Shown: positions 5,902 through 29,936, counted from the stretch's first letter. The stretch: DNA of 64,000 nt from Escherichia coli (GCF_044647545.1 NZ_CP172818.1); one strand, 5' to 3'. A program made the numbers and translations. Notes: a model not told the origin generated them from the letters alone.

Positions 5902-6837
5902 TTATTTCACTTCAACCACATTCAGTCGTAACTCATCCAACTGATTTTCATCTTCTTCAGGCTGCCAACCCGCCGGTTGTAGAGGGATCTCTTCGCGATC
6001 AAACGCCAGATCACCCCCGTTAACCACTTCAGAACCGTGGGTAATGCCTTTGAAATCGAACAGGTTGGTATCGCACAGATGCGACGGCACCACATTCTGC
6101 ATCGCGCTGAACATCGTCTCGATACGCCCCGGATAACGTTTATCCCAGTCACGCAACATGTCAGCAATCACCTGACGTTGCAGGTTAGGCTGTGAACCGC
6201 ACAGGTTGCACGGAATAATCGGGAACGCTTTTGCATCGGCAAAGCGCTGAATATCTTTCTCGCGGCAGTAGGCCAGCGGACGAATAACGATATGTTTGCC
6301 ATCATCGCTCATCAGTTTCGGAGGCATACCTTTCATCTTGCCGCCGTAGAACATATTTAAGAACAACGTTTGCAGGATATCGTCACGATGGTGACCCAGC
6401 GCGATCTTCGTCGCTCCCAGTTCCGTTGCGGTACGGTAAAGAATTCCGCGACGAAGACGAGAACACAGTGAGCAAGTGGTTTTGCCCTCCGGAATCTTCT
6501 CTTTCACGATACCGTAAGTGTTCTCTTCCACAATCTTGTACTCAACGCCCAGTTTTTCAAGATACTCGGGCAGAACGTGTTCCGGGAAGCCCGGTTGTTT
6601 TTGATCGAGGTTGACAGCCACCAGCGAAAAATTGATTGGCGCGCTTTGCTGCAAATTGCGCAGAATCTCCAGCATGGTATAGCTGTCTTTACCCCCTGAG
6701 AGGCAAACCATGATGCGATCGCCTTCTTCAATCATATTGAAGTCAGCAATGGCTTCGCCCACATTACGACGCAGACGTTTTTGTAATTTGTTCAGGTTGT
6801 ATTGTTCTTTCTTACTAATTTCTTGATTTTCTTGCAT
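5902..6837 (-). CDS. ttcA: tRNA 2-thiocytidine biosynthesis protein TtcA (5' end formed by the prophage junction)
   Basis: 311 aa; PP-loop SGGKDS and CxxC motifs; first ~16 codons lie in the att repeat. Confidence 0.9.
6788..6830. repeat. Prophage attachment-site core repeat, integrase-proximal copy
   Basis: 43-bp exact direct repeat ttgttcaggttgtattgttctttcttactaatttcttgatttt, also at 29887..29929. Confidence 0.75.
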
Positions 6838-6888
6838 TATTTCAGTTCTCTGGTACTAAATGGGGCAAATTGGGGGCAAACTTTGCAA

Positions 6889-8119
6889 CTACGATAACCG
6901 CGCATTCAACATGGCTATCTGTTCGTCGTTCATGTCATCAATCCACATACCGTAAATTTCATACACCATCTGCGCAGTTTCATGCCCCATTTGGCTGGCT
7001 ATAAATGCCGGGTTCGCTCCTGCCGTCAACAGCCAGCAGGCAAAAGTATGCCGCGTATGGTACGGATTACGGCGGCGAATACCAGCACGTTTTACTGCTG
7101 CATTCCACCTTGCCCCCAAACTGCTTACCGAGTAATAAGGTTTTTGTTTTCCGTTACACACCCTGGGCATGAAAACAAAATGCAGTTTTTGCTTTTCGGT
7201 TCTGCATACTGCCGATAATAAAAGGTGACGACTTTTGCGATGATGCCCGGTCAGTTTGTATTGCTCCTTCAGTGCTTCAAGAGCAGGCTGCAGTAGTGTT
7301 ACTGTTCGGATCCCGGCATTTGTTTTTGGGGGACCGAACATATCGAGCCCTCGTCAGGTTTCTTCTGACATTCACTATTCCCTTTTCGAGATCCACATCC
7401 TCCCACGCCAGAGCTGCCAGTTCCCCGTGACGAAGTCCTGAGTAAACGGCAAAGTTCCACAAGTTCTCGCTATCTCCTTTTTCACTTTCCATTAATGCAT
7501 TGAATTCTGTTTTAGATAACGGATCAGGCTTTATTCTGTTCGCTGTAATTTTTTTACTCCTTCAAATGGTTTGGTTGATATAAATCCGACTGATACGCAA
7601 AACGCAACAGCGAACAGAGCAAGGCAATATCGTATCAACTGTGCGCACGGTTCTTCCTTTTTTGTTGGATCTTGGATTATCCAGGTAAAGCGTTTCTCCA
7701 TGCAGCAGTTCATTCCGGTAGTTTAAGATATCGCTATAACGAATATGTGATATCGGGGTACTTTCACAAATTATTATTCTGAGTGTTTTTAATTGTGATT
7801 TCGTTTTCTTCATTGTGTTTGTTGTTAACTCTGTCTCTTTAATTTTTGTCCAGATATCACAAAGCTCTCCGAACGTTTTTATGACTCTCGTTGTCACCAT
7901 TTTTGCCCCAGTGCTGGACTGGGGAAAACGTCTTAAATACTCAAATTCACCGGAGTTTATTTCATGAACTATCAGCGCTCTTAAATTTCCGGCCTTTTTA
8001 ATATTACTGTTTGTAATCTCCCAGCCTTTTAATGTTTCCCGACATCGTTTTCCTCGAAACATGAACCAGATGCGAATGTATCTACCTCTAATCTCGACAC
8101 CTGTTGGTAATTTAGACAT
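6889..8119 (-). pseudogene. intR: Tyrosine integrase, frame-disrupted in this sequence
   Basis: Integrase-like translation split over ORFs 6889..7341, 7277..7492, 7531..7713 and 7562..8119 in different frames. Confidence 0.75.
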
Positions 8120-8120
8120 A

Positions 8121-8336
8121 TCATGAGTCTTTGATAAACTGATTTATCTTTGGATAGTTGTACCAGATAATCCCTCGTTTGCTGTCTGGCTTACCTAAAG
8201 GAGATACTCGTTTGAAGTGGAAGCCCTCCACCCAACAGTTCTGGCGGTATGCTTCAATTTGTCTGGCCCCCAGACCAGTGCGAAGCATCAGGCCGTATTC
8301 AACCATCCACTCTTCATTAAAGATTACTTGTGCCAT
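8121..8336 (-). CDS. xisR: Excisionase-like protein
   Basis: 71-aa ORF ([10 protein letters not shown]...) immediately upstream of integrase, overlapping arrangement. Confidence 0.8.
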
Positions 8337-8414
8337 CGCATCACCTCTGGCAGGCGCCAATGTTAGACTGAAATTGACGCCCGATGTTGATTATTAATAA
8401 TCAGCTATGAAGTT

Positions 8415-8624
8415 TTAATTTGAATACAATGCAATTCTCGAGGACTGAAGTTTCTCGCAATTAAAATTTATCAGTTTTACTTTCTGCTCTCTGGAAACGC
8501 CTGCTTCTTTTTTACCTGAGAGCATTTTTTCGCATTCTGATTTCGTTAGTTTAGATTTTGAATATCTTGTCCAGTTAGTAGGAGTGCCACCTTCCTTTTC
8601 AATAGTGGCGGTAATTTTATACAT
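8415..8624 (-). CDS. ydaC: Rac prophage small protein YdaC
   Basis: ORF 8415..8696; likely start at internal ATG (MYKITATIEKEGG). Confidence 0.65.
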   Translation of the reverse strand: MYKITATIEKEGGTPTNWTRYSKSKLTKSECEKMLSGKKEAGVSREQKVKLINFNCEKLQSSRIALYSN

Positions 8625-8811
8625 GAACACCTCCATTATTATTTCCAGTGGTTCGTTTATTCCATCTTTCGAGTGCTTCTTTTTCACTTCCACCATAACC
8701 GGTTCGGGATTCGCATCCGTTACACTTCGCTCGGTAATATCCTGAAATGGCTTTCACCGTTACTGATGGACAACCACAAAATGGACATGGTTTAACATTG
8801 TCATATCTCAT
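8617..8811 (-). CDS. ralR: Restriction alleviation protein / type I toxin RalR
   Basis: 64-aa Cys-rich product (MRYDNVKPCPFCGCPS...CNGCES) within ORF 8617..8850. Confidence 0.85.
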   Translation of the reverse strand: MRYDNVKPCPFCGCPSVTVKAISGYYRAKCNGCESRTGYGGSEKEALERWNKRTTGNNNGGVHV

Positions 8812-8867
8812 AATTTTTCTCATAAAAAATATTTCAAGTTGGCGGTGCATTACACCGCCAGGCTGAA

Positions 8868-9677
8868 TTATTCCTCTGAATTATCGATTACACTGTATTC
8901 CCCGGTTAATACAGAGGAATCTGCAGGATCGATTGTCAGTGGTTCCTTTTCATCCATTGATACTGCACGCTGGATCTCAATTGATACGGGCAAATATTTG
9001 AACAGGCGACGAATAGCCGTTTTCTTTGCCATTTCTTCCCAGTGAGTTACCCACGGCCCGTTATTACCAGCTTTACTCAGGCTGCGCACCAGCTCAATCT
9101 GTTTGCGCGTCATAACTTCAAACTGAGTACCTCCGTCTTTCAGTCTTGCGACAGCATAGACGTGGGTAACCGGGGCATCTTCGTTTTCTCCCGGGCGGTG
9201 TATTAACTTTTCATCAAGGCCAAATTCGAAGCTAAACTCGTCACCTTCACGGACAACACGGGCTGACAGGCTGGCGATTTGACCAGAACGGCGAGCCAGA
9301 TCAATCATGCCGCGATAGCCAATGATTAGCTGAACGTTCTTTTTACCGCTCTTTTCGTTTTTATTACCAAAAGGCAGTAAATATGCATGACCGAGGGCGC
9401 TACCTGGCTCAAGTCCGAGCTGTGAACACTGTACGATCGCACTGACAAAACTCATAGTGTCACAGTTTCCTAACGCCGGAACTTTACGAATTTCTGTGGT
9501 GGCGATACGGATCATACGTTCAGCCGTCATATGGCGTGGAAGAGCTGCTGCCAGTTGCTCTTTCATTGATGGCTGGTTAATAAAACTAATCACGTCGCTA
9601 TTTTTAACTGCTGCTGGTGCACGGTTTCCCTGAGTTTTTTGCAGATCGGCTTTTGCGATTGGTGGTTGCTTAGTCAT
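8868..9677 (-). CDS. recT: Recombinase RecT (single-strand annealing protein)
   Basis: ORF 8868..9734; recalled RecT N-terminus [12 protein letters not shown] at internal ATG. Confidence 0.9.
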
Positions 9678-12312
9678 TTGCATATTCCTTAGCCCAGCGG
9701 GGCAGTGATAATGTCTTAATAGCTGGCCATTCATCGGTATTCAGGCAGTCAGACAGGGTTCGCAGATTGCGGTGATATTCCTGTTGACCTGCCAGTTTTG
9801 CTTCTTCGCCCATCATGAAAATTTCAACCGGATAACGTCCGCATTCAATAGTTGTGCTGGCAACCAGAAAAACGAAAGTTGGCTGCACTCCAAACTGTGC
9901 TTCATAACCGTCACTGTAGAATGCATCCTGAACGTGATAGCGGTAGTCGTAATAAGCGGTTTTGAATCGTTGAATATCCGCCGTAGTTTTCACGTCCATG
10001 ATCCAGTGAAATTCAGGGATAATTTTGTCCGGACGGCACCGACACAAAATTCCTGTTTCAGGATCTTCCCAGTAAATTGATGATTCAGCGTGTCCGGCGC
10101 TTTCAACAAGCCATTGCCCCAGCGGCAAAGCCATAACGCTTTGATACATGAGTTCAATTTTCCGGCCTTCTTCCGCAGTGATAACCGTTTTTCCTGTGCT
10201 TGCGCATTCCATCAGAAACGCTTTCTCTTCTTCTTTTCCGGCGTTTGTACGGCGGTTAAATTCAGGTGCTACGATAAAGCGGTTACTGAATTCTTCCGGT
10301 TCAAGTACCCGGCAGTGGAAAGCAGTTCCTAAATCGAGCGTTTTTGTCTTTGTGGTGTCCACGGGGGCATTTTTACGCCACAAATATAGTGCCGGAGTAT
10401 CAGCAATGTCATCGAGCTGAGACTTACTGATACCGGGACCCGCGTGGTAATTCTCATTCGAAATTCCGTAATAAATACCTGGCTCTATGTCTTCTACGAT
10501 TAAGGGATCTGACGCCTCGCCAGTTTCACTATCGCTGGCATGATGCTGATTGCTGCCAGTGTTCTCCTTGTGCTGATGCGCAGTGCCTTCCATTTCCTCC
10601 AGATCATTTTTCTGAACTTCAGGCTGATTCTCTCCATCGAATATTTCCTGGTATGTTGCGTCACCCATCACCGCACCACAATCAGGGCAGTTGCCGCCAC
10701 CGCTCTGACCGCAGGCGGTGCAGATCTTTTCCGGTTCCTGTTGCACTACTGGTTCAGGTTGTTTCGTTTCTGGCTCGTTTTGTTGCGTATTTGGGCTGTT
10801 TTGTTCCGCTTTCTGGTCGTTCTGTTCCGTTTCTTGCTGGTTCTGGTTCACAGAATCGCGGGTCTGGATCCCCTTAATCCATTTCGGATCATTCGGGTCG
10901 CTAATCCCTTCAACAAATTCACCACGTGATACTGCAAGCAGTTCATCGTCATCGACAGGATTTTTTGATGGAATGTTTTTCCGGGCTTCATGGAGTTCTG
11001 CCCGCAGTTCCTGATATTTCGCATCAACAGAATTTACCTGTGACTGAGCATCCAGCGGCTGCGTGTCCTGATGATGTTCAGTTGCGTCCGGTTCCATTGT
11101 TTCAGCCTCTCCCTGTTCAACTGCCGTTGTTCCAGATGGTTGCGGTTTTTCTTCATCATCCTGTTTTCCTTCTTCTGTTACTCGCTGCGGCATCGGGGCA
11201 GAGGAGCGACCGCAGGCAATATCCACGATTTCCGGATCAGGGTTGGCATGATCGGTTTCAGTCAGTACTTTGTTCAGATATTCAGTGACGTGCGCGGGGA
11301 TGACCTCGATCCCAATTGGTGCTTCTTTTACGGACGCAACCACGATGGCGCGGGAATAATCCAGCCCGCCAGGCATGGTGATGAATTTGTCGCGGAAAAC
11401 AGAAAAGGGCGGTTTATTTTCAGCGATAATTTCCTCAATGCGTTTAGCGTGTGCCGGATGAAGGTTATAGATGTCCAGATCCATTGAACGGGCCAGTACG
11501 CCAGTGGCTACGTCGCGCGCCAGTGACGTCAGATCGTGTACGAAACCTTCGCCGCGATCGGTGAGGTTTCCGCCGCCAGCATTAGCACCGGAAGCCGTGC
11601 GAGTGATGTGTGAAACACGATTACCCTTCATCCACTCTTTTGTCAGCAGTCCTCGATCGGTGTAGTCAGCGTTCAGGTATGCTTCGAAAAAAGCAGTTAT
11701 CAGTCCCAGGTTTGAATTACCAGGATTAGGGAAAACTTTGTCAGTGTCACGAACCAGTTTGTGGAGTTCGCGAATTTCCAGCGGGTCGAGCAGGCTGGTT
11801 TTGTGGGAAACAGCCAGGGCAGTAACAGCCGGTAGTTCTTCAGCCCGAGCAATGTGTAATGCCTGGAGTCCGTCGCGTGAAACGTGCGTTACCGGTTTTT
11901 CGCTGCCGTGTTGAGCAAGCCAACGAATGGGCAGTTCCTGGCCAGAAATTGGGAGTAGCATATTCTCCTCAATCTCAGTCATGTCTTCGCCGTTGACGTT
12001 GGTATTGCCTTGATAGTGAGCGTTGTCTGGTGCTGCTCCCGGTTTTAGTTCCCATGTCATGGAGTCTTTGCTGAGTTGATAGCGTTCACTCCAGGTAAAA
12101 TCGATCTCACCTTCAGCGGGCAGGTCATTAACGACAGGAAAATTCGTGGCAACAGCTTTAAAATAGCTGCTCAGTTTTTTACCTGACTTAACGATCAGGT
12201 AGTCCAGAGTGGCACAGGTCGATTCAAAATCGTTGCTTGCCCACAGGACGACGTCAGGTTCACCGGATGATTTTTTCGCTTTCCGTAACAGGAAGAGTGG
12301 TTTTGTGCTCAT
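9670..12312 (-). CDS. recE: Exonuclease VIII RecE
   Basis: 880-aa ORF ending ...[11 protein letters not shown]; low-complexity acidic/Gln-rich middle region; overlaps recT start. Confidence 0.9.
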
Positions 12313-12413
12313 TGTTTTTTAACCTCAACTCAGATTAAAATTCGTTTTGTTCAGTGAATGATCTTGCCGGATACACACTGTTCATAGCCTGCGCCATACG
12401 CAGGCTATTTCTT

Positions 12414-12689
12414 TCAGATTTCACCTTTTAATTTCATTGCAATTAGAGTTGCCAGAAATTCGGCTTTTTTTTCTGCGGGCAGATTCTTTCCGATATGCAC
12501 CAGGCACATTTTTTTGACACCTTCATCAAGTGTTTTTACGTTGCCTGATGGACCATCGATATCAACCACAGTGAATGGGGTTTCTTTATTTTCTGTTTTA
12601 ATTACGTAGCCAATGCGCTTTCCTTCCAGATTCACCTCGTGAACAATGTCATCGGTAGTTACAACAGTGGCTTCATAATTGGTAATCAT
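12414..12689 (-). CDS. racC: Rac prophage protein RacC
   Basis: 91-aa product (MITNYEATVV...) within ORF 12414..12737. Confidence 0.8.
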   Translation of the reverse strand: MITNYEATVVTTDDIVHEVNLEGKRIGYVIKTENKETPFTVVDIDGPSGNVKTLDEGVKKMCLVHIGKNLPAEKKAEFLATLIAMKLKGEI

Positions 12690-12763
12690 GTTTTTCTCCT
12701 TAATTAAGGTTGAGCGAATACCTGCCATTTCTGGCATAAATTCAGTTTCGAATAGTCAATTAA

Positions 12764-12934
12764 TTAAAGTTCATGTGCCATCTGGTCTTTTTCGGCACAA
12801 GCTTCACTGCAATATTTTCTCGGTTCGTCTTTTGATAAAATCCCGTGCATGAAGTGAAGCATTCTTTCAATAGCTTTGCTTTCTTCAACGTCTTTTTTGC
12901 AAAGGTGGTAAGCACATTTTATTTTCTTAGTCAT
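12764..12934 (-). CDS. ydaE: Small Cys-rich zinc-ribbon-like protein (56 aa)
   Basis: Hand translation [56 protein letters not shown]; start overlaps kilR stop (TGATGA); not in ORF track (<60 aa). Confidence 0.7.
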   Translation of the reverse strand: MTKKIKCAYHLCKKDVEESKAIERMLHFMHGILSKDEPRKYCSEACAEKDQMAHEL

Positions 12935-13155
12935 CACCATGACTCCGCCTTTACAGGTAAACCATCACGACCGAGGAAGACTTTAATCATGCGGTCAGTA
13001 ATGAATGTTTTTGTGGTCAGGTTACGAATATATAGTTTTCGCTTTTTAATATTGTTTGCCGAGGCAATATATGTCCGGCCTTCATGAAGAACATAATCGC
13101 CAGGAGTCACACACTGACGTGGTATTTCATCAGTTCCGAAGTGATGTGCAATCAT
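12934..13155 (-). CDS. kilR: Cell division inhibitor KilR (FtsZ inhibitor)
   Basis: 73-aa product ([14 protein letters not shown]...) within ORF 12934..13167. Confidence 0.85.
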
Positions 13156-13596
13156 AATTATCTCCATTTTTACAAATGAACTTTGTTGATGCGGTGTCTG
13201 GTGCCTCCAGGTGACTGCAACCAGTTAACAATTACAGTCGGCTTTCCCACCCAAACCAATAAGGACTAACATGACTTTTAACTGTGCCACGTGCGCTTAG
13301 CCGCATTCACCGCATCACAAAATTCACTTTAAAAAGGGCGGACATCAGCCGAACTTCAAGAAAAAAACTGATGCCGCCAGGACTACACACAGCAATGTCG
13401 TTATTTACAACCGGAGGCGCACTCCCACCATTTAAATTTAACAGACAAGACCGACTCTTTATGGATATCGGAAATGCGCCTTCGTGTTGTGCCCGGTTTT
13501 ATTTCACCACCTCCGGGCTTCGGTGGTCTCGGCTATACCCCTACAGCGAGAGCTTGTGTTAACATTTCAATACCCTTACAGTTGAGAGTTATTGAT

Positions 13597-14085
13597 ATGT
13601 TGGATGTATTTACTCCATTGTTGAAACTTTTTGCTAACGAGCCACTCGAAAGACTTATGTATACGATTATCATTTTTGGTCTCACTCTCTGGCTGATACC
13701 GAAAGAGTTTACTGTCGCATTCAATGCTTATACTGAAATACCTTGGCTCTTTCAGATTATCGTTTTTGCCTTTTCTTTCGTGGTCGCCATTTCCTTCTCA
13801 AGATTGCGAGCACATATTCAAAAGCATTATTCATTACTACCAGAGCAACGAGTATTGCTTCGTTTATCTGAGAAAGAAATCGCTGTATTTAAAGATTTCC
13901 TTAAAACAGGAAATCTTATTATCACTTCTCCTTGCCGTAACCCGGTTATGAAAAAATTAGAACGGAAGGGCATCATTCAACATCAGAGTGATAGCGCAAA
14001 CTGTTCTTATTATCTCGTCACCGAAAAATACTCCCATTTTATGAAGTTATTCTGGAACAGCAGGAGTAGACGTTTTAATCGTTAG
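13597..14085 (+). CDS. sieB: Superinfection exclusion protein SieB
   Basis: 162-aa membrane protein from internal ATG (MLDVFTPLLK...) of ORF 13474..14085. Confidence 0.85.
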   Translation: MLDVFTPLLKLFANEPLERLMYTIIIFGLTLWLIPKEFTVAFNAYTEIPWLFQIIVFAFSFVVAISFSRLRAHIQKHYSLLPEQRVLLRLSEKEIAVFKDFLKTGNLIITSPCRNPVMKKLERKGIIQHQSDSANCSYYLVTEKYSHFMKLFWNSRSRRFNR

Positions 14086-14237
14086 CTTACTGTGTGCTTC
14101 TCCAACCATCGGCGCGCACCAGTTTCGGTTTTAAATGTTTTGCTTTTGGTATACGTCATGGCAGTGAACGTTCCATCCTGGTTGGGGAACACGCCGCACA
14201 CCAGGGATTCGTTGTTGCCGAGGTCGATTTTTTGCAT
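14082..14237 (-). CDS. ydaF: Small prophage protein (51 aa)
   Basis: Hand translation MQKIDLGNNESLVCGVFPNQDGTFTAMTYTKSKTFKTETGARRWLEKHTVS; stop overlaps sieB stop convergently. Confidence 0.55.
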   Translation of the reverse strand: MQKIDLGNNESLVCGVFPNQDGTFTAMTYTKSKTFKTETGARRWLEKHTVS

Positions 14238-14247
14238 TTTGCGAATC

Positions 14248-14382
14248 TCACATCTTGTTGCTACGTATAGCGACTTCTGCCTGCCAGAGATCCCAGTCGT
14301 TGCTGCGTAAAGCCTGCACAGCCTGGTTGTAAGTGATACCGCAACAATCCATCAAATACTGAACTACTTCGTAATGCACCAT
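14248..14382 (-). CDS. ydaG: Small prophage protein (44 aa)
   Basis: Hand translation MVHYEVVQYLMDCCGITYNQAVQALRSNDWDLWQAEVAIRSNKM. Confidence 0.55.
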   Translation of the reverse strand: MVHYEVVQYLMDCCGITYNQAVQALRSNDWDLWQAEVAIRSNKM

Positions 14383-15167: not shown

Positions 15168-15218
15168 TGCTTAATATTCTCCTATGCGCATTACATTAGG
15201 CAATCCCTACCCTTACTG

Positions 15219-17677: not shown

Positions 17678-18199
17678 ATGGAGACTGTTTTTGACGCACT
17701 GAAAGCAATGGGAAAAGCCACATCCATAGAACTTGCTGCGCGACTTGATATCAGTCGTGAAGAAGTGCTGAACGAACTATGGGAACTGAAAAAGGCTGGT
17801 TTTGTTGATAAAAGCGCGTACACCTGGCGTGTGGCTGATAACAATGTTCAGCAGGAACAGCCAGCGCAGGCAGAACTGCCGGAAGAAATCACCACAGCAA
17901 CAGTAGCGAAAATCTCAGAGTGCGATTTAACCGCGACGATTGAACAACGAGGACCACAAACGGCTGATGAGCTGGCTACATTGTTTGGTACCACATCACG
18001 CAAAGTGGCTTCAACGCTGGCAATGGCAATCAGCAAAGGTCGTCTGATTCGCGTAAATCAGGGCGGTAAATTTCGTTACTGCATACCGGGCGATAATTTA
18101 CCAGCAGAGCCGAAAGCAGCATCGGTATCTCCGCTCTGGTTATCTGCATCATCGTCTGCCTGTCATGGGCTGTTAATCATTACCGTGATAACGCCATGA
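17678..18199 (+). CDS. ydaW: Putative winged-helix DNA-binding protein YdaW (possibly remnant)
   Basis: ATG with gggag SD at 17678; 3' end overlaps Rz-like frame. Confidence 0.5.
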
Positions 18200-18570
18200 C
18201 CTACAAAGAGCAGCGCGATAAAAAAGTCAGTGAGCTGAAGCAGGCGACTGCCACCATTACTGACATGCAGCAGCGCCAGCGTACTGCTGATGCACTTGAT
18301 GCTAAATACACGAAGGAGTTAGCTGATGCGAAAGCTGAAAATGATGCTCTGCGTGATGATGTTGCCGCTGGTCGTCGTCGGTTGCACATCAAAGCAGTCT
18401 GTCAGTCAGTGCGTGAAGCCACCACCGCCTCCGGCGTGGATAATGCAGCCTCCCCCCGACTGGCAGACACCGCTGAACGGGATTATTTCACCCTCCGGGA
18501 ACGACTGGTAATGATGCAGGCCCAACTTGAAGGTGCTCAGCAATACATAACCGAGCAGTGTTTAAAGTAA
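18100..18570 (+). pseudogene. rzpR: Rz-like i-spanin remnant (no ATG at the lambda-Rz-equivalent N-terminus)
   Basis: Frame encoding ...[36 protein letters not shown]... resembles lambda Rz; ORF track lists only 18196..18570. Confidence 0.65.
18326..18511 (+). CDS. rzoR: Rz1-like o-spanin lipoprotein, embedded in rzpR in +1 frame
   Basis: 61 aa; lipobox LVVVGC; proline-rich ([15 protein letters not shown]). Confidence 0.7.
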
Positions 18571-18707: not shown

Positions 18708-20165
18708 ATGAATACATCTCATGTAAGAGTTGTTACTCATATGTGTGGGTTCCTGGTTTGGCTCTATAGTCTTTCAATGTTGCCACCAATGGTTGTAGCA
18801 TTGTTTTATAAAGAAAAAAGCCTGTTTGTTTTCTTTATAACTTTCGTTATATTTTTTTGCATTGGTGGCGGAGCGTGGTATACAACTAAGAAATCTGGCA
18901 TTCAATTACGTACCCGTGATGGGTTTATTATAATTGTAATGTTTTGGATTTTGTTTTCTGTTATTAGTGCATTCCCTTTATGGATTGACTCAGAACTTAA
19001 TTTAACGTTCATTGATGCTCTGTTTGAAGGGGTTTCTGGAATAACAACAACAGGAGCAACTGTAATTGATGATGTTAGTTCATTACCTCGGGCATATTTG
19101 TACTATCGGTCACAGTTAAATTTTATAGGTGGTTTAGGAGTTATTGTTCTGGCGGTTGCTGTATTGCCATTATTGGGTATTGGTGGTGCAAAGCTTTATC
19201 AGTCAGAAATGCCGGGGCCATTTAAGGATGACAAACTCACTCCCCGCCTGGCCGATACGTCACGGACACTGTGGATAACTTATTCTTTATTAGGTATTGC
19301 TTGTATTGTCTGTTATAGACTTGCAGGAATGCCTTTGTTTGATGCTATTTGTCACGGGATTTCCACAGTTTCGCTTGGTGGTTTCTCAACTCATAGCGAG
19401 AGTATCGGATATTTTAATAACTATTTGGTTGAGCTGGTGGCTGGTTCTTTTTCCCTGCTATCGGCTTTCAACTTCACTCTTTGGTATATTGTTATTAGCA
19501 GGAAAACGATAAAACCTTTAATCAGAGATATTGAACTTCGTTTCTTTCTGTTAATAGCCTTAGGGGTGATCATTGTTACCTCTTTCCAGGTCTGGCATAT
19601 AGGTATGTATGACTTGCATGGAAGTTTTATTCATTCGTTTTTTCTTGCCAGCTCCATGCTCACTGATAATGGTTTAGCTACGCAGGATTATGCAAGTTGG
19701 CCCACGCACACGATAGTGTTTTTGCTGTTGTCAAGTTTCTTTGGGGGATGTATAGGTTCAACTTGTGGTGGAATTAAGTCACTTCGATTTCTTATACTTT
19801 TCAAACAAAGCAAACACGAGATAAATCAGCTTTCTCATCCCAGAGCGTTGTTGAGTGTAAATGTAGGAGGGAAGATAGTTACAGATCGTGTAATGAGGTC
19901 TGTATGGAGTTTCTTTTTTCTTTATACTCTCTTCACGGTGTTTTTTATACTGGTGTTAAATGGTATGGGATATGATTTTCTTACATCATTTGCAACAGTG
20001 GCTGCATGTATTAATAATATGGGATTAGGTTTTGGGGCTACTGCATCGTCATTCGGAGTGCTTAATGACATTGCAAAATGCTTAATGTGCATAGCTATGA
20101 TTCTTGGTCGCCTTGAAATTTATCCTGTTATTATATTGTTTTCAGGTTTTTTTTGGCGCTCCTAA
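18708..20165 (+). CDS. trkG: Potassium uptake protein TrkG (TrkH paralog)
   Basis: 485 aa from internal ATG (MNTSHVRV); multi-pass membrane protein; AT-rich. Confidence 0.9.
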   Translation: MNTSHVRVVTHMCGFLVWLYSLSMLPPMVVALFYKEKSLFVFFITFVIFFCIGGGAWYTTKKSGIQLRTRDGFIIIVMFWILFSVISAFPLWIDSELNLTFIDALFEGVSGITTTGATVIDDVSSLPRAYLYYRSQLNFIGGLGVIVLAVAVLPLLGIGGAKLYQSEMPGPFKDDKLTPRLADTSRTLWITYSLLGIACIVCYRLAGMPLFDAICHGISTVSLGGFSTHSESIGYFNNYLVELVAGSFSLLSAFNFTLWYIVISRKTIKPLIRDIELRFFLLIALGVIIVTSFQVWHIGMYDLHGSFIHSFFLASSMLTDNGLATQDYASWPTHTIVFLLLSSFFGGCIGSTCGGIKSLRFLILFKQSKHEINQLSHPRALLSVNVGGKIVTDRVMRSVWSFFFLYTLFTVFFILVLNGMGYDFLTSFATVAACINNMGLGFGATASSFGVLNDIAKCLMCIAMILGRLEIYPVIILFSGFFWRS

Positions 20166-20302
20166 TATATGGCTGATTTATAATTGTGAGTTTAATATTA
20201 TGTTGACTCACTCATTGATCCAATACCTAACTTTACCAGCAACACCTCCGTCCCCAGTAGCACTGGCTGCTGGGGTGCGTTTTATTCATAAAGCAAGGCT
20301 GT

Positions 20303-20566
20303 ATGAGCGAGAAATTAAAGATAGTCTATCGCCCATTACAAGAATTGTCACCGTATGCGCACAACGCCAGGACGCACAGTACTGAGCAGGTGGCACAACT
20401 GGTAGAAAGTATTAAGCAATTCGGCTGGACTAATCCGGTGCTGATTGACGAAAAGGGCGAAATTATTGCGGGTCACGGTCGTGTTATGGCGGCTGAAATG
20501 CTCAAAATGGATTCTGTTCCGGTCATTGTTCTGTCTGGCCTGACGGATGAGCAGAAGCAGCGATAA
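20303..20566 (+). CDS. ynaK: ParB-like nuclease-domain fragment protein YnaK
   Basis: 87 aa with ParB N-terminal-like motif (GHGRVMAA). Confidence 0.75.
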   Translation: MSEKLKIVYRPLQELSPYAHNARTHSTEQVAQLVESIKQFGWTNPVLIDEKGEIIAGHGRVMAAEMLKMDSVPVIVLSGLTDEQKQR

Positions 20567-20906
20567 CGATCAGTATCGCTCCCGTAATGCATTAATCCGT
20601 CGCCACATTGAGAAAATGGATGCCAGTTTGCACGTCGGAACGAAGGAGTTTGATATTTCAAAGGTTTCCGAGGTGGATTCTGTTGATGATTTACTCATTG
20701 ATAATGCCGCTCGTTATCTGCTGAAAGACTGGAAAGGGGTTGGTGAACTGGTTAATGGTGTTGAGGTTGCACTGGAATATACGGCAGAACGAGGGATCGC
20801 GCTGCTTAAGCAGAATCCAGAGTTGTACTGGCAGATCCTTGCAGAAGCAGCCAGCATCGCCCAGGGTAAAGAGCAGCAGAAGCAGGATACGATAAAAAAG
20901 CCATAG
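20547..20906 (+). pseudogene. ydaY: Prophage gene remnant YdaY
   Basis: 119-aa ORF overlapping ynaK end; no recognisable complete domain. Confidence 0.5.
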
Positions 20907-20980
20907 CTGCCCAGCGGTGGTTATCGGAGTTCGGGGGAGAAAGGGGGGAAAAGGCAAGATGGAAGCGAGAAAAACTCAGG

Positions 20981-21214
20981 TTGCCACCGATACCGGAACC
21001 AGAAATAGACCCGGTGCTTAAGGAGTTGTTGTACGCCTATTCGGTAATATCCCGTGCCCGACGTTATGCTGGAATGGCTGGGGTGCCTTTGCCTTTATCT
21101 CTGACAGAGATAAATGAATATTTAGCCACTCATCCGGTATTGATTGAGCGCGATGAATTTGAAGCAGTGATCTTTGCACTGGATGACCAGTATTTTCAGG
21201 AGCAGTGTGTGTAG
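20981..21214 (+). CDS. Phage-related small ORF, possible tail-assembly fragment (uncertain)
   Basis: 77-aa ORF immediately upstream of tape-measure fragment. Confidence 0.3.
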   Translation: MPPIPEPEIDPVLKELLYAYSVISRARRYAGMAGVPLPLSLTEINEYLATHPVLIERDEFEAVIFALDDQYFQEQCV

Positions 21215-21379
21215 TTGTTAATTACGTACACTCTGTTACAGAGATGTGATGGTGTCTTTAATTAAATCGATGATGCTCCTGGAGAAAAGCATTGCGTGGC
21301 CTCGTAATCGCTATATCTACTATTATGTCGCCTGAAACCCACTTCGCGGTGGGTTTTTTGTTGTCAGGAGTTTTAATAA

Positions 21380-22408
21380 ATGGCAGAGCAAACCTCGCGT
21401 CTCGCAATAATTATTGATAGCACTGGAGCGAAAAATAATGCTGACAATCTGACCTCCTCATTAGTCAAAATGACGCAGGCTGGGGAAACTGCTGCAAATA
21501 GCGCAGGGAAAGTGACTAAGGCAACAGAAGATGAGAAGAACGCGCTCGCAAAATTAAAAGCAGCTATTGATCCAGTTGGTGCCGCAATTGATACTGTCGG
21601 TCGACGCTATTCTGAATTAAAGAAATTTTTCGATAAAGGGCTTATTGATAAAGAAGAATATGAATTTCTTGTCCGTAAACTTAATGAAACCACAGAGGAA
21701 TTGAGCGGGGTTGCGCAAGCGCAGAGAGAAGCCGAGAAGGCCGGAAAACTTGCTGCCGCTCAGCAGGAAGCGCAGGCTCAGGCCTTTCAAAGAATGCTGG
21801 ACAAGATCGACCCTCTGGCTGCGGCGCTAAGAAATCTTGAACAACAGCATGATGAACTTAATGCTGCGTTTGCATCCGGGAAAATAAATGGTTCTCAGTT
21901 TGAGAATTATAGCCGAAAAATACAGGAAACACGGCGAGAGCTTACCGGAGAGGCTCAGGCAGAGCGAGAAGCAGCAAAAGCGCATGATGAACAGGTTGTT
22001 GCTTTGCAACGTCTGATTGCTCAACTTGATCCTGTCGGAACTGCTTTTAATCGTCTGGTAGAACAACAGAAACAGCTCAATGAAGCAAAAGCTAAGGGGA
22101 TGCTTTCTCCTGAAATGTATGAGGAGCTTTCTGGAAAACTTCGTGCTATGCGGAGTGAGCTTGAGGTTACTCAATCACAATTAAGCAAAACCGGAATGTC
22201 GGCAAAACAAACGGCTTTTGCTATGCGCATGTTGCCTGCACAAATGACGGATATTGTTGTTGGGTTGTCCACTGGTCAGTCGCCATTTATGGTGTTAATG
22301 CAGCAGGGCGGCCATTCAGCTATGCAGGAGACAAGAATCGCCAGCTTACCCGTTACAGCGATACCCGCTGGCATGAAGATTCAGTGCGTAACCGCTGGTT
22401 CAGCATGA
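21380..22408 (+). pseudogene. tmpR: Tail tape-measure protein, N-terminal fragment
   Basis: 342-aa coiled-coil-rich ORF typical of tape-measure N-termini; far too short for a full TMP. Confidence 0.7.
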
Positions 22409-22524
22409 TGGCGGGGCCATCTGTACGCGTGAATGAATGGTTCAGTGCTTATGCGATGGCGGGTGTGGCTTACAGCCGTGTTTCGACGTTCTCCGGGGAT
22501 TATCTCCGCGTAACTGACAACAAG
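22407..22524 (+). pseudogene. lomR: Lom-family outer membrane protein, internal fragment upstream of IS5
   Basis: Frame MAGPSVRVNEWFSAYAMAGVAYSRVSTFSGDYLRVTDNK runs into IS5 left end. Confidence 0.5.
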
Positions 22525-23720
<1,196 letters not shown>

Positions 23721-23910
23721 CAAGGGGAAAACGCACGATGTGCTGACCGGAAGTGATGACGATCGCCACAGCAACACGTCTCTGGCGTGGGGAGCTGGCG
23801 TGCAGTTTAACCCGACCGAATCCGTGGCCATTGACATTGCTTATGAAGGCTCCGGCAGTGGCGACTGGCGCACTGACGGTTTCATCGTGGGTGTCGGTTA
23901 TAAATTCTGA
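23721..23910 (+). pseudogene. lomR: Lom-family outer membrane protein, C-terminal fragment
   Basis: Ends with OMP beta-barrel signature ...GFIVGVGYKF; resumes after IS5. Confidence 0.7.
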
Positions 23911-23974
23911 TTAGCCAGGTAACACAGTGTTATGACAGCCCGCCGGTTCAGGCGGGCTTTTTTGTGGAGTGGAT

Positions 23975-26900
23975 ATGGCAGCAGTAAAAATCTCAGGTGT
24001 GCTGAAAGATGGTGCGGGAAAACCAATACAGAACTGCACTATTCAACTGAGGGCAAAGCGTAACAGCACCACGGTACTGGTGAACACGGTGGCCTCTGAA
24101 AATCCGGATGAAGCCGGGCGTTACAGCATGGATGTTGAGTATGGCCAGTACAGCGTCACCCTGCTGGTTGAAGGTTTTCCGCCTTCACATGCCGGAACCA
24201 TTACCGTCTATGAAGGTTCCAGACCAGGTACGCTGAATGATTTTCTCGGTGCCATGACGGAAGATGATGTCATGCCGGAGGCATTGCGTCGTTTTGAGGC
24301 AATGGTGGAAGAAGCGGCACGCAACGCGTCCGCGGTGGCACAGAACACGGCAGCCGCGAAGAAGTCAGCCAGTGATGCCAGCACATCAGCCCGTGAGGCG
24401 GCAACCCATGCGGCTGATGCTGCGGACTCAGCACGCGCAGCCAGCACGTCAGCCGGACAGGCCGCGTCGTCGGCTCAGTCAGCGTCTTCCAGCGCAGGAA
24501 CGGCATCAACAAAGGCCACTGAAGCATCAAAAAGTGCTGCCGCTGCAGAGTCCTCAAAAAGCGCGGCGGCCACCAGTGCCGGTGCGGCGAAAACGTCAGA
24601 AACGAATGCTTCAGCGTCACTACAATCAGCAGCCACATCTGCATCCACCGCGACCACGAAGGCATCAGAAGCTGCGACCTCGGCCCGGGATGCGGCGGCC
24701 TCAAAAGAAGCGGCAAAATCATCAGAAACGAACGCATCATCAAGCGCCAGTAGTGCAGCTTCCTCGGCAACGGCGGCAGGAAATTCCGCGAAGGCGGCAA
24801 AAACGTCCGAGACGAACGCCAGGTCTTCTGAAACGGCAGCGGGACAGAGCGCCTCGGCTGCGGCAGGCTCAAAAACAGCGGCTGCGTCGTCTGCCAGTGC
24901 AGCGTCAACAAGTGCCGGGCAGGCCTCAGCCAGTGCCACCGCCGCCGGAAAATCGGCAGAAAGCGCCGCATCGTCTGCTTCAACAGCCACAACGAAGGCT
25001 GGCGAAGCCACTGAACAGGCCAGCGCAGCAGCGAGGTCTGCTTCCGCAGCGAAGACATCCGAAACGAACGCGAAAGCGTCGGAAACAAGCGCAGAATCCT
25101 CAAAAACGGCTGCCGCATCGTCAGCCAGTTCGGCGGCGTCATCGGCATCATCGGCGTCTGCTTCAAAAGATGAGGCGACCAGACAAGCGTCAGCAGCGAA
25201 GAGCAGCGCCACGACGGCATCCACGAAGGCGACAGAGGCTGCTGGCAGTGCGACGGCGGCAGCTCAGAGCAAAAGTACGGCGGAATCCGCGGCAACGCGC
25301 GCCGAGACAGCAGCTAAACGGGCAGAGGATATTGCATCCGCCGTGGCGCTTGAGGATGCAAGTACGACGAAAAAGGGGATAGTACAGCTCAGCAGTGCGA
25401 CCAACAGTACGTCTGAAACGCTGGCGGCAACGCCAAAGGCAGTAAAATCAGCCTATGACAATGCAGAGAAACGTCTGCAGAAAGACCAGAACGGCGCTGA
25501 TATACCCGATAAGGGATGCTTCCTGAACAACATTAACGCGGTCAGTAAAACAGACTTTGCTGATAAGCGTGGTATGCGTTATGTGCGGGTTAACGCTCCT
25601 GCAGGTGCAACATCTGGAAAATATTACCCTGTTGTTGTTATGCGTTCTGCTGGCTCAGTAAGCGAACTGGCATCAAGAGTCATTATCACCACGGCAACGC
25701 GAACCGCAGGCGATCCGATGAATAACTGCGAGTTTAACGGATTTGTTATGCCTGGTGGCTGGACTGACAGGGGGCGTTATGCTTATGGCATGTTCTGGCA
25801 ATATCAAAACAATGAACGAGCCATTCACTCAATAATGATGAGTAATAAGGGCGATGATTTGCGCTCTGTGTTCTATGTTGATGGCGCTGCTTTCCCTGTT
25901 TTTGCGTTTATTGAAGATGGCCTGTCAATATCCGCACCTGGTGCTGATCTCGTTGTTAATGATACGACCTATAAGTTTGGGGCAACAAATCCGGCGACTG
26001 AATGTATCGCGGCGGACGTTATCCTTGATTTTAAGAGTGGGCGTGGTTTTTATGAGTCTCATTCGTTAATCGTTAACGATAACTTGTCGTGCAAAAAACT
26101 TTTTGCCACAGACGAAATTGTAGCGCGTGGTGGTAATCAGATTCGAATGATAGGTGGGGAGTATGGTGCATTATGGCGTAATGATGGCGCTAAAACTTAC
26201 CTGCTGCTTACCAATCAAGGTGATGTTTATGGTGGCTGGAATACATTAAGACCGTTTGCTATTGATAACGCAACCGGCGAACTGGTTATTGGAACCAAAC
26301 TGTCCGCAAGTCTGAACGGTAATGCATTAACAGCAACAAAGCTGCAAACGCCAAGACGGGTTTCTGGTGTTGAGTTTGATGGTTCCAAAGATATTACTTT
26401 AACCGCCGCGCATGTGGCTGCTTTTGCCAGAAGGGCAACGGATACATATGCCGATGCGGATGGTGGCGTTCCATGGAATGCCGAATCTGGCGCTTACAAT
26501 GTCACCCGCTCTGGCGACAGCTATATTCTGGTTAACTTCTATACCGGAGTCGGAAGTTGCCGGACCCTGCAGATGAAGGCGCATTACAGAAATGGTGGTC
26601 TGTTCTACCGTTCTTCAAGAGACGGTTATGGTTTTGAGGAAGACTGGGCAGAAGTTTATACCTCGAAAAATCTTCCACCAGAAAGCTACCCAGTCGGCGC
26701 ACCAATCCCGTGGCCATCAGATACGCCACCTGCAGGTTATGCAATCATGCAGGGGCAGACGTTTGATAAGGCAGCATATCCGAAACTGGCTATTGCCTAT
26801 CCTTCTGGTGTTATTCCAGATATGCGCGGCTGGACAATCAAGGGCAAACCCGCCAGTGGTCGGGCCGTATTGTCTCAGGAACAGGATGGCATTAAATCGC

Positions 26901-27340
26901 ACACCCACAGTGCCAGCGCATCCAGTACGGATTTGGGTACGAAAACCACATCGTCGTTTGATTACGGTACTAAATCAACGAATAACACAGGTGCACATAC
27001 CCACAATGTATCTGGTACTGCAAATAGTGCTGGCGCACATACTCATACCGTTCCATTAAGGAGACCAAACAGTGGCGGTATGAATTTCGACTGGCTGGAT
27101 GGTTCATCAAGTGGCACGGTGGTGGGGAATGGAACTGTGCCTTCTTCTGGCGCACATACCCACTCAGTATCAGGTACCGCTACAAGTGCTGGGGCACATG
27201 CACACACTGTTGGTATTGGCGCTCATACGCACTCTGTTAAGATTGGTTCACATGGACACACCATCACCGTTAACGCTGCTGGTAACGCGGAAAACACCGT
27301 TAAAAACATCGCATTTAATTATATTGTGAGGCTTGCATAA
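23975..27340 (+). CDS. stfR: Side tail fiber protein
   Basis: ~1121 aa; Ala/Ser/Thr-rich repeats in the middle, HxH repeats near the C-terminus. Confidence 0.9.
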
Positions 27341-27915
27341 TGGCATTCAGAATGAGTGAACAATCACGTACCGTAAAAATTTATAACCTGCTGGCCGGAA
27401 CTAATGAGTTTATTGGTGAAGGTGACGCATATATTCCACCTCATACAGGGCTGCCAGCTAATTCTACAGATATCGCCCCACCGGAAATTCCTGCTGGCTT
27501 TGTGGCAGTTTTTAACAGTGAAAATGAATCGTGGAATATTGTTGAAGACCATCGTGGTAAAACGGTCTATGACGTGGCGTCGGGGGACGCATTGTTTATT
27601 TCTGAACTCGGACCGCTACCAGAGAATGTCACCTGGTTGTCGCCAGCAGGGGAGTATCAGAAGTGGGACGGCGTATCCTGGGTGAATGATGAGGAAGCAG
27701 AAAAACTGTTTCGGATACGGGAAGCGGAAGAAAGAAAAAGCAACCTGATGCAGGTAGCCAGTGAGCATATTGCGCCGCTTCAGGATGCTGCAGATCTGGA
27801 AATTGCAACGGAGGAAGAAACCCCGTTGCTGGAAGCATGGAAAAAGTATCGGGTATTGCTGAACCGTGTTGATACGTCAACTGCACAGGATATTGAATGG
27901 CCAGCACTGCCGTAG
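27340..27915 (+). CDS. tfaR: Tail fiber assembly protein
   Basis: 191-aa ORF start-overlapping stfR stop; Tfa-like. Confidence 0.85.
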
Positions 27916-28012
27916 GGTAAAACATATAAATTCTATAATTAGATGTATCTTTCCATTTACGGCAAGGAAGGGGGCTTGGAAGACGTAAAGCATCTCACAC
28001 CGAGATTATTTT

Positions 28013-28603
28013 TTATATGTCAGGTGTCTGAAGTTTTGCTTTGGCTCTTAAAATGGTTTGCCGCGAGGTTTTGAATTCCCGGGCAATGGCACTTATACTT
28101 ACACCTGACTTAATTCGTTCGAATACCACCTGTTTCTGTTCTTCATTTAACACAGGTGGTCGACCAAAACGTTTCCCTGCGCCGCGGGCTCTTACTATCC
28201 CGGAATGAGTGCGTTCAAGTAAAAGGTCTCGTTCAAATTCAGCGACTGCTGAAATTACTTGCATCATCATTTTTCCTGTTGGACTGGTCAGGTCAATGCC
28301 ACCCAATGCTAAGCAATGCACTCTGATACCTGTTTCGGTCAGTTGTTCCACTGTTTTCCTGATATCCATTGCATTACAACCAAGGCGATCCAGTTTTGTC
28401 ACAATCAATTGATCACCACATTTCAGGCGAGCAAGCAACCGGTTAAAACCAGGACGCTCACTGGTTGCTGCTGAGCCGCTAATGTGTTCTTCGATTATTT
28501 GCTGAGGTTTGATTTTAAAACCTGCACTTTCGATTTCCCGGCGTTGATTTTCGGTGGTCTGATCCAGCGTTGATATCCGACAGTAAGCAAAAATTCGAGA
28601 CAT
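28013..28603 (-). CDS. pinR: Serine recombinase / DNA invertase (Pin/Gin/Hin family)
   Basis: 196 aa; N-terminal catalytic Ser region (YCRISTLDQ); C-terminal HTH. Confidence 0.9.
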
Positions 28604-28919
28604 AGTGAGACTCTATACGAAATTGGTGTTCATATCATAATGCATCTCAGAAAATAATTATGATTATTTTTGTGCATATTTGTATGTACACGTTCGAAAA
28701 TAAACGAATGCGTATGCAACCCCGTAATTTTGGTGAGACCCAAAATCGATTTTGTGAAAAAAGGCTTTAACTCGGTTTGTTTTTCGAGTTCCGGGCGGAC
28801 TCAAGGAAGAAGAATAGTGTTGCGTGTTATTTTAACCAGATTTCAAGTTGTTTGGTCGTGGAAAAGTGGAGCAAAATGTTGTTAAAGTGGAAAAATGATA
28901 AAAAAGTAAGTTTATTATA

Positions 28920-29153
28920 TTACATTTTACCATTTAAATTTTGGTTGTCTTTAAGAACTGATATCGCTGTTTGTAATAATTCTTTGTTATCCAGCCATGA
29001 TTTTTTCTTTATGTTTCCTTCAATGTAATCAAGCAATGTTCTGGTATTGATAGGTCTTCCCTGTTTTGCTACTTCCACTACAGCATCCCCTAGGATAATT
29101 CTTACTTCAGGAAGCTGCGCAGGGAACCACTTTAGGGTGTCTTTTGATTTCAT
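28920..29153 (-). CDS. ynaE: Rac prophage protein YnaE (YdfK-like)
   Basis: 77-aa product from internal ATG (MKSKDTLKWF...) of ORF 28920..29258. Confidence 0.75.
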   Translation of the reverse strand: MKSKDTLKWFPAQLPEVRIILGDAVVEVAKQGRPINTRTLLDYIEGNIKKKSWLDNKELLQTAISVLKDNQNLNGKM

Positions 29154-29882
29154 GAAGATATTCCTTAAAATATTATTGATTTTCATTGCGATATTGTATG
29201 TCTGATTCAGGATATGTTGACTTATACATCGGTTTTGTCTGGTTATTGGATATGCCAATCCCTAATTTTATTAGAGCATGACTAAAAATGCTGAATATGA
29301 TAAGGAGCGAAGTGATTATCAGTATGCTGTTCATATAGCCTCGAATTAGTAATGTGTTATATATGATATAGTTGACAATTTTTATCCTGGGTGTTCTTAA
29401 AGTTCGTAGATAAACATTGTCGTTTCAGGTATACAGGAATGCTAACAGGTGGCGGCAAAAATCAGGCGGTTTATGGCGCAAGCTGAAGTGGCAACTGCAA
29501 ACTATCTTATGCAGAGACTCTACACGGATTGGGTTTAAAAGTATACATAGATAACAGTTTTTATCTGAAGAAGAAAAATATCAAGGTGATATAGCCTATA
29601 TGCCTTTGATGCGGAGGAATGAATGTGATGGGAGTGATGTATCTGAATAGTTGAAAAACCGCAGTCACGTCGTATGCAAGAACGTGCTGCGGTTGGTTTG
29701 ACTTTGATTGAGACGTTTTGGAATTTTTTTCGGTGGCAAAAATGGGGCAAAACGCTGCAAAAGGGGCAAAAAAGGGGCAAAAAAAGAGTGGATTATCGTA
29801 GCTTATTGTTGTCGCTGATGATATTTAACACATTGAAAAATAAGTAAAATACTTATGAGTCAGAGAGTTGTGATTTTTGCCC

Positions 29883-29936
29883 TTACTTGTTCAGGTTGTA
29901 TTGTTCTTTCTTACTAATTTCTTGATTTTGCGACAT
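29883..29936 (-). pseudogene. ttcC: Remnant of displaced original ttcA 5' end
   Basis: ATG at ~29936 reads [17 protein letters not shown] then stop at the att repeat boundary. Confidence 0.5.
29887..29929. repeat. Prophage attachment-site core repeat, distal copy
   Basis: Identical 43 bp to 6788..6830. Confidence 0.75.

Follow-up and report, generated by a model that had tools for sequence, protein, structure and literature searches.

How can a bacterial gene survive the integration of a phage into its first codons? The question is raised by a stretch of 64,000 nucleotides (nt) from Escherichia coli (GCF_044647545.1 NZ_CP172818.1), called the window here at its full length, whose positions are used throughout. 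In it the gene ttcA, which encodes the tRNA 2-thiocytidine-32 synthetase of 311 amino acids (aa), adjoins a block bounded by direct repeats. This block is almost certainly the cryptic lambdoid prophage Rac, integrated in ttcA and bringing a replacement for the 5' end of the gene. The gene lies on the minus strand (5902..6837, ATG at 6837-6835, stop at 5902), and its start and first codons are supplied by the prophage. Its promoter appears to lie inside the phage integrase gene, and the ttcA promoter of enterobacteria that lack the prophage may well be a piece of an older integrase.

The boundaries of the block are marked by two perfect 43-base-pair (bp) direct repeats, found by a repeat search of the window at 6788..6830 (the attL copy) and 29887..29929 (the attR copy). 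Both copies read TTGTTCAGGTTGTATTGTTCTTTCTTACTAATTTCTTGATTTT; they are 100% identical and lie 23,099 bp apart. By our own arithmetic, about 3e-17 exact pairs of 43-mers are expected by chance in 64 kilobases (kb). According to the repeat search and an alignment of the junctions, the attL copy covers codons 3-17 of ttcA on the minus strand, running from the second base of codon 3 to codon 17. The attR copy covers codons 3-17 of a remnant of the same gene. Phage-unique DNA supplies the ATG of ttcA and the four bases after it (codon 2 and the first of codon 3), and the genes for the integrase and the excisionase sit just inside the left repeat.

The body of the element (6831..29886) can be identified by its collinearity with E. 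coli K-12 MG1655 at 1411899-1434958, annotated there as "cryptic prophage Rac", and by matches to PHROGs. Two collinear BLAST segments align at about 98% identity and include all named genes as well as an IS5 in lomR. The gene order intR ... recET ... racR-ydaST ... trkG ... stfR-tfaR-pinR-ynaE is kept, and in a per-gene mapping the Rac proteins are mostly 100% identical to those of K-12. The length of 23,099 bp compares with 23,060 bp in K-12, a difference explained by changes in recE (+42 nt), stfR (+3), intR (-5) and ynaM (-1).

Direct repeats that enclose an IS5 and cargo such as trkG could also suggest a transposon or genomic island with a target-site duplication. Such an origin is extremely improbable: one end of the block carries the genes for a tyrosine integrase and an excisionase, the gene content includes lambdoid immunity, replication and tail-fibre functions, and related full phages of 52 kb occupy the same site. 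In addition, a single 43-bp copy is already found in the empty site, so the repeat is not a duplication made on insertion.

The empty site was built in silico by joining 6331-6830 to 29930-30429, and the resulting 1000 nt were searched against 5,426 complete E. coli genomes. The reconstruction has 100% identity over its whole length to many Rac-free genomes. The empty site is found in one piece in 2,489 of the 5,426 genomes, and the Rac-type junction between ttcA and int (attL) in 2,913. In the Rac-free strain IMT16316, ttcA is annotated directly beside uspF, the host gene which adjoins it in Rac-free strains (30112..30546, minus strand, in the window), and begins MSQNQEIS. The phage form is provided by viral contigs of the attP type (L014-L016, L020, L026 and L027), where the phage right end (...GATTTTTGCCCTTAC) is followed by the core and an MQEN start (CTTGCAT, that is, ATGCAAG) beside int. 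Taken together, the empty sites and the attP contigs identify MSQ... as the resident start and MQE... as the one brought by the phage. The resident start survives at the far junction as a short open reading frame (29883..29936, minus strand), which is annotated in K-12 as the pseudogene ttcC (b4638) and begins in the same way as the ttcA of Rac-free strains. Excision is predicted to restore an attB reading ...CAAAATCAAGAAATTAGT...

Much of this is already known. The K-12 annotation and the literature cover the identity of Rac, its att sites and the pseudogene ttcC. Liu et al. 2015 (PMC4632033) reported that Rac sits in ttcA, that its excision changes the N-terminus of TtcA, and that YdaQ/XisR is the excisionase. 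A Nucleic Acids Research (NAR) 2023 paper describes identical excisions of 23,060 bp with three base changes in ttcA.

These observations are consistent with the following model. Rac would enter by tyrosine-integrase recombination, in which IntR joins attP of the phage to an attB of the host that lies where conservation of the ttcA codons sets in (YNLNK). Integration would sever ttcA from its own 5' end, and the phage would carry a replacement beside attP, made up of a sigma-70 promoter in the 3' part of int, a leader of 212 nt, and a new ATG followed by some 12 N-terminal codons that vary. At the far junction, the 5' end that the host gene has lost would stay behind as ttcC.

A preliminary description of the window, made from its sequence, had taken the repeats for prophage boundaries. 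The collinearity with the annotated Rac and the exact reconstruction of the empty site bear this out. It had named an alignment with a prophage-free genome as the check for rebuilding attB, and this alignment gave an uninterrupted ttcA with the 43-bp core at the predicted place, at 100% identity over 1000 nt. It had also claimed that the start and the promoter-proximal DNA of ttcA come from the phage, and that the displaced start persists as a remnant. The first claim agrees with the attP contigs, which carry MQEN... beside int, and with the transcription start of ttcA in K-12, which maps inside intR; the second agrees with the ttcC annotation and with the Rac-free strains, which use exactly that start. 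It had placed the 43-bp repeat over the first 16 or so codons of ttcA and treated it as the core. Here a correction is needed: only part of the 43 bp can be recombination core, and the crossover can be placed within at most 15 bp.

Evidence for the shorter core comes from other junctions of the same kind. In K-12, attL and attR share 26 identical bp (TTGTTCAGGTTGTATTGTTCTTTCTT) and then differ at the equivalents of positions 6814, 6815 and 6822. In the 52-kb phage Rac-SA53, only the 15 bp TTGTTCAGGTTGTAT are common to attL and attR, and the same sequence is common to the attL, attR, attB and attP forms. From the 16th base on, the sequence is of the phage type at attL and of the host type at attR, which puts the crossover within 6788-6802. 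This maximal crossover segment, deduced from the comparison of Rac-SA53 and K-12 (attR equivalent 29887-29901), encodes YNLNK of TtcA. These are the first TtcA residues conserved from Escherichia to Haemophilus, and the residues preceding them vary freely between genera. The remaining 28 bp of the repeat would therefore be a phage-borne imitation of the 5' codons of ttcA, and not a recombination site.

A core of the whole 43 bp, with perfect identity required for integration, might be expected from the fact that the two copies in the window are 100% identical and that five complete genomes share this form. It is nevertheless highly improbable: K-12 and about 2,900 other genomes have three mismatches in the distal 17 bp, yet Rac of K-12 excises precisely; Rac-SA53 keeps only 15 bp in common; and the viral contigs in the attP form, six or seven in number, have phage-type alleles without exception, unlike the host.

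One further junction bears on the crossover within TTGTTCAGGTTGTAT. In the viral contig IMGVR_UViG_2740892248_000001 (L012, positions 1-110), a Rac-type junction of int and the ttcA start follows a different flank (...ATATTCAGATTGTAT...). This flank, which was not found in E. coli genomes, may belong to a different right arm of the phage or to another host in which the phage used a secondary attachment site. In the latter case the crossover might be narrowed to TTGTAT.

Candidate arm-type sites for the integrase can be found on both sides. Between the int stop and the ttcA ATG there are two direct GGGGCAAA repeats (6862..6880, plus strand), which may be Int sites of the P' arm, and the paired motif also occurs between int and ttcA in other species. 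A cluster of similar repeats marks the right end of the phage (29732..29882, plus strand), with exact copies at 29744, 29763 and 29774, degenerate copies, and one inverted copy at 29874-29882, beside the core; these may be P-arm sites. Five of the seven GGGGCAAA matches in the window fall within about 150 bp of the two cores, and their total is not above that of shuffled sequences (7 vs 3.3 +/- 1.8).

If the 5' end of ttcA is replaced, where does its transcription begin? In the SMRT-Cappable-seq data of Yan et al. 2018 (operon table, Suppl. Data 2), just one start is assigned to b1344 (ttcA), at 1,412,160 on the reverse strand, and the gene has no other transcriptional context in either M9 or rich medium. 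This position is an A inside intR, 212 nt upstream of the ttcA ATG and 7 nt after the hexamer TACCAT. A start about 212 nt upstream of the ATG had been predicted from hexamers in intR before the comparison with the operon table. The corresponding promoter in the window (7049..7085, minus strand) is identical to that of K-12. It is laid out as CTGGTA, a spacer of 17, TACCAT, 7 nt and the starting A, with the putative -35 box at 7085-7080, the -10 box at 7062-7057 and the equivalent of the start at 7049. It would occupy int codons 347-357 or thereabouts, within the codons for the catalytic NPYHTRH box of the integrase; the hexamers are assigned by sequence.

The papers searched cover N-terminal variation of TtcA, and they describe neither a promoter embedded in int nor fossils of int at empty sites, which is not proof that these are unpublished. 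No reporter or mutation data on the promoter element were found in the same papers.

The native upstream region of ttcA turns out to contain a related sequence. The repeat search gave a match of 51 nt at 76% identity between 7042-7092, inside int, and 30017-30067, between the terminator of uspF and the start of ttcC. The match is on the same strand and on the same side of the core at both places. Its alignment score is 27, whereas neither 2,000 shuffles nor 582 further chunks of the window gave more than 15. The translation of the native copy, KCADIFPSNPYHTRHSFYIRFLMLG-PA, agrees with residues 345-373 of IntR, KRAGIRRRNPYHTRHTFACWLLTAGANPA, at 15 of 29 aa (E 4e-6). By this match, the native ttcA upstream region holds a fossil of the C-terminus of an integrase (KCADIFPSNPYHTRHSF...; 30017..30067, minus strand). 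Pfam gave no match to the 44-aa translation of the fossil, and searching it against phages with blastn gave only weak matches (E 0.6), all to Rac-type int.

A consensus scan flags the fossil as a promoter, CTGACA-17-TACCAT (30060-30032), with the -35 box at 30060-30055 and the -10 box at 30037-30032. The ttcA transcription start of Rac-free strains is predicted at this site, 88 nt upstream of the ATG (window 30024). For K-12, the operon table lists no start at the fossil promoter beside ttcC, and this table covers only whole-gene transcripts; the supplements of Romero 2014 and of Cappable-seq 2016 have nothing for the ttcA locus. The displaced native promoter points into ynaM and ynaE, which are on the same strand, and it might transcribe them.

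To what extent this arrangement is general can be seen from a scan of 80 loci, with TtcA as the query and one genome per species. In all representatives of Escherichia-, Citrobacter-, Enterobacter- and Kluyvera-like species, Pectobacterium, Brenneria and Mangrovibacter, DNA derived from int is found in the 50-230 nt upstream of ttcA. An intact Rac-type int is present at three loci, the one in E. cloacae having only 70% protein identity; a C-terminal fragment of int at six; and a minimal piece, corresponding to IntR residues of about 344-362, at eight loci as well as at the native site of E. coli. No element was found upstream of ttcA in Yersinia, Rosenbergiella, Budvicia, Providencia, Morganella or more distant taxa of the scan.

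The element, of about 45 bp, has the DNA consensus TAAAACGTGCTGGCATTCGCCGCCGTAATCCGTACCATACGCG. Its alignment shows next to no variation in two places, the CTG of the -35 box and the sequence ATCCGTA.CATAC about the -10 box.

Salinivibrio is a weak case. In S. sharmensis, a member of the Vibrionaceae, an integrase-like fossil of 13 aa (GICGQNPYHTRHS) occurs with AATCCGTATCATAC about 60 nt upstream of ttcA (L060:2900-2960). It suggests that the same family of integrases targeted ttcA well outside the Enterobacterales.

The reading we favour, with reasonable but not strong confidence, is that the enterobacterial ttcA promoter is a domesticated piece of phage integrase, of which some 45 bp were kept after the prophage decayed, so that "empty" sites descend from older integrations. 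It would cover the displaced start in the window, the loci of Citrobacter, Enterobacter, Pectobacterium and Mangrovibacter, and possibly that of Salinivibrio. The "original" start of ttcA displaced by Rac is then probably itself the relic of an older integration and, if so, the 5' end of the gene has been replaced by phages repeatedly.

Alternatively, the int piece in prophage-free species could be a neutral scar that has not yet decayed, noticed since it happens to be the best-conserved motif of the integrase, and without any role as a promoter. Detection by tblastn is biased to conserved motifs, the translated fossil goes unrecognised by Pfam, and the mapped start is the one inside intR of K-12, not one at a fossil site. 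We regard a neutral scar as rather unlikely on four grounds. The only K-12 ttcA start maps 7 nt after the TACCAT of the element. The minimal fossils are sharply bounded: unrelated sequence sets in abruptly to the left and to the right, and the stretch from the element to the ATG has lost 85-157 nt. The 14-mer AATCCGTAYCATAC is restricted in position: 15 of the 80 loci contain it, in each case 60-230 nt upstream of ttcA, and the loci have no copy at any other place; about 0.01 chance matches are expected (own arithmetic). Finally, synonymous conservation in the intact int peaks exactly at the element, with a fraction of identical codons of 0.85 at residues 341-360, against a background of about 0.3 (Rac vs E. 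cloacae).

If the ttcA promoter is indeed embedded in int and kept as a fossil throughout the Enterobacterales, the locus would provide a clear case of a phage coding sequence that doubled as a host promoter and was then domesticated, and "empty" attachment sites cannot be taken as ancestral.

Several points weigh against the account of the window given so far. The transcription start is a K-12 measurement, made in a strain other than that of the window. The hexamers in intR are only moderate matches to the consensus, and the promoter in intR was not picked up by the consensus scan. The attL of the window differs from the usual Rac attL at three bases, and a simple recombination of a K-12-type attP with attB does not yield it. 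Lastly, the frameshifted intR of the window has no counterpart among the roughly 1,870 complete genomes in which this stretch is represented, the best of which has 97.7% identity.

The unusual attL can be approached through its distribution. The perfect 43-bp form is found in 5 of the 5,426 complete genomes, compared with roughly 2,900 that have the K-12 form, and in none of about seven attP contigs sampled. Its three differing bases (6814, 6815 and 6822) equal the attR/attB version exactly. The flank to the left is not of the K-12 type, and Rac from 6823 on is largely identical to K-12. These features, along with the absence of the allele from the attP contigs, its presence in the K-12-like assembly BHUCD01 and the stretches of poor quality in the window, speak for a secondary origin, which is favoured by a narrow margin of belief. 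The attL may have been converted by attR; the ttcA flank may have been swapped with Rac-free DNA, through a heteroduplex that reached the edge of homology at 6830; or, as an artefact of assembly or polishing, attB or attR reads may have overwritten attL. Against a secondary origin stands the fact that five complete genomes, independent of one another and with Rac-like prophages that differ (1919D3 is one), have the form. The source may also be a natural attP allele of the phage, with ACTAATTTC beside the core, and secondary homogenisation is judged most likely, ahead of such a rare allele.

Two simpler explanations were considered and rejected. Had a K-12-type Rac excised and integrated again, the K-12 attL would have been restored, as the crossover falls in the common core. 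A simple assembly chimera at attL is not compatible with the mere 8 bp in common to the right of the last variant base, nor with the five complete genomes of the same form.

In BHUCD01 (NZ_CM183442.1; L008, attL at locus positions 6819-6949), the perfect 43-bp attL is accompanied by scattered differences from MG1655. This assembly has K-12 coordinates and may be reference-guided, which bears on the question of whether the attL variant is an artefact.

The integrase gene is a second irregularity of the window. The intR gene (6889..8119, minus strand) is broken by insertions and deletions (indels) with a net change of -5 nt. Between 7204 and 7632 there are 13 substitutions and 9 indel columns, leaving open reading frames of 185 aa (7562-8119) and 150 aa (6889-7341); the gene as a whole has 8 internal stops. 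The fragments still show the Arm-DNA-binding (PF12167, 9e-27), SAM-like and Phage_integrase (PF00589, 4e-13) domains. If the frameshifts are real, the prophage may be unable to excise unaided, and a polymerase chain reaction (PCR) across the attP junction may be negative.

The frameshifts may also be errors, as housekeeping genes elsewhere in the window are likewise riddled with indels. Compared with K-12 MG1655, the window is a mosaic. Many kb are 100% identical, namely most of Rac, the region at 42 kb and that at 53-64 kb. In the flanks, at 0-7 kb and 30-41 kb, substitutions amount to 1-2.5%, indels are absent, and other natural lineages match exactly. About 240 indel columns fall in the stretch at 43.6-53 kb, where the 3' end of feaB, tynA, paaZ and paaA-F have no intact reading frames, and for 46000-50000 none of 3,181 E. 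coli genomes is more than 94.7% identical. This stretch looks like poor sequence quality rather than biology. Among complete E. coli genomes no exact match to the whole window was found; the best identity is 99.1% for 5800-9000 and 97.5% for 20000-31000, and 1919D3 and BHUCD01, which share the attL variant, are no closer. At 60952-62133, in the region of the K-12 autotransporter pseudogene ydbA, there are four tandem units of 294 nt, the first three of which are 91% identical to one another.

Starting from the intR end, the genes in the body of Rac are intR, xisR, rcbA, ralR, recT, recE, racC, ydaE, kilR, sieB, ydaF, ydaG, racR, ydaS, ydaT, ydaU, ydaV, ydaW, rzpR/rzoR, trkG, ynaK, ydaY, ynaA, lomR::IS5, stfR, tfaR, pinR, ynaE and ynaM. 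The excisionase XisR (ydaQ; 8121..8336, minus strand), whose function is known from Liu et al. 2015, is identical to that of K-12 at 72 of 72 aa. A PHROGs scan of 10 open reading frames in the right half identified an O-like or primosomal protein, a DnaC-like loader, a truncated Rz spanin, a ParB-like fragment, a tail-chaperone fragment, a tape-measure fragment, a tail fibre, an assembly protein and a DNA invertase. The tape-measure fragment is the 342-aa ynaA (21380..22408, plus strand; profile search and K-12 annotation). It is followed by the IS5 in lomR (22525..23720, minus strand; transposase 22672-23652), inserted at the same point as in K-12, the tail fibre stfR (23975-27340, plus strand), the tail-fibre assembly gene tfaR (27340-27915, plus strand) and the invertase pinR (28013-28603, minus strand).

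Neither the K-12 annotation nor the PHROGs scan of these frames gave a terminase, portal, capsid, holin or endolysin, and the element is therefore defective. This confirms the preliminary description, which had reported no head, holin or endolysin genes, with one addition: rzpR/rzoR (18196..18570, plus strand) encodes an N-terminally truncated Rz-like spanin (phrog_13, profile positions 32-154 of 154), a Rz/Rz1 remnant which is all that persists of the lysis cassette. The defect would have arisen by internal deletions in which the antiterminator, holin, endolysin, terminase, head and most tail genes were lost.

A few parts of the prophage differ from K-12. In recE there is a divergent patch (10503-10944) with about 110 differing columns and a 43-nt insertion in a GTTT-rich linker, for a net gain of 42 nt. 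The gene remains in frame (880 aa vs 866 in K-12), and the patch looks like a natural alternative allele gained by recombination. The C-terminus of stfR and tfaR (26000-27999), beside the pinR invertase, have about 160 substitutions and 26 indel columns, and TfaR is identical to its K-12 counterpart at 172 of 192 aa; this stretch may be an exchanged cassette for tail-fibre specificity. There is also a 1-nt deletion in ynaM (29222-29334) and an internal stop in ydaW (17678-18238). For racR (b1356), the operon table of Yan et al. 2018 puts the transcription start at 1,420,241, which is the first base of the start codon (window 15167), and the transcript thus appears to be leaderless, like that of lambda cI from PRM.

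The closest known system is Rac of K-12, which has the same insertion site, gene order, IS5 in lomR and ttcC remnant. It differs in having 26 bp of attL/attR identity and three mismatches in place of a perfect 43 bp, and a TtcA that begins MQENQQIT, not MQENQEIS. The window in turn has a frameshifted intR, the recE patch of +42 nt, a divergent tfaR and stfR C-terminus, and flanks that are not of the K-12 type. Excision would alter 4 aa of TtcA in K-12, compared with 2 in the window. Separating the crossover site from the gene-repair copy in a long block of att identity affects this change in the host protein as well as the calling of prophage boundaries.

Full-size Rac-like phages at ttcA include Rac-SA53 (KU052037), Sp10, CP-933R and the prophage of strain 1919D3. 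They share the integrase family, the attB in ttcA and the left arm int-xis-ralR-recT-recE, but they are about 50 kb long and have kept the genes for terminase, head and lysis. In Rac-SA53 the copy of the ttcA 5' end is of a different version (MQENQKNTKKEIYNLNK), with only 15 bp in common with attB.

The Int/Xis system of phage lambda is similar in its N-terminal arm-binding and C-terminal catalytic domains, in the small excisionase gene that adjoins int, and in the position of int beside attP. The GGGGCAAA repeats of the window are candidates only for arm-type sites, and the overlap region of 6-8 bp in which lambda-type recombinases exchange strands would fall within the 15 bp or less of the crossover segment.

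Intragenic integration with a substitute gene end, which leaves the gene functional and a duplicated fragment behind, can also be found in e14 and phage 21 at icd and in islands at tRNA and tmRNA genes, as described in a review. These elements replace the 3' end of their target. Rac replaces the 5' end, and for this reason the phage must also bring a promoter, a leader, a ribosome-binding site and a start codon.

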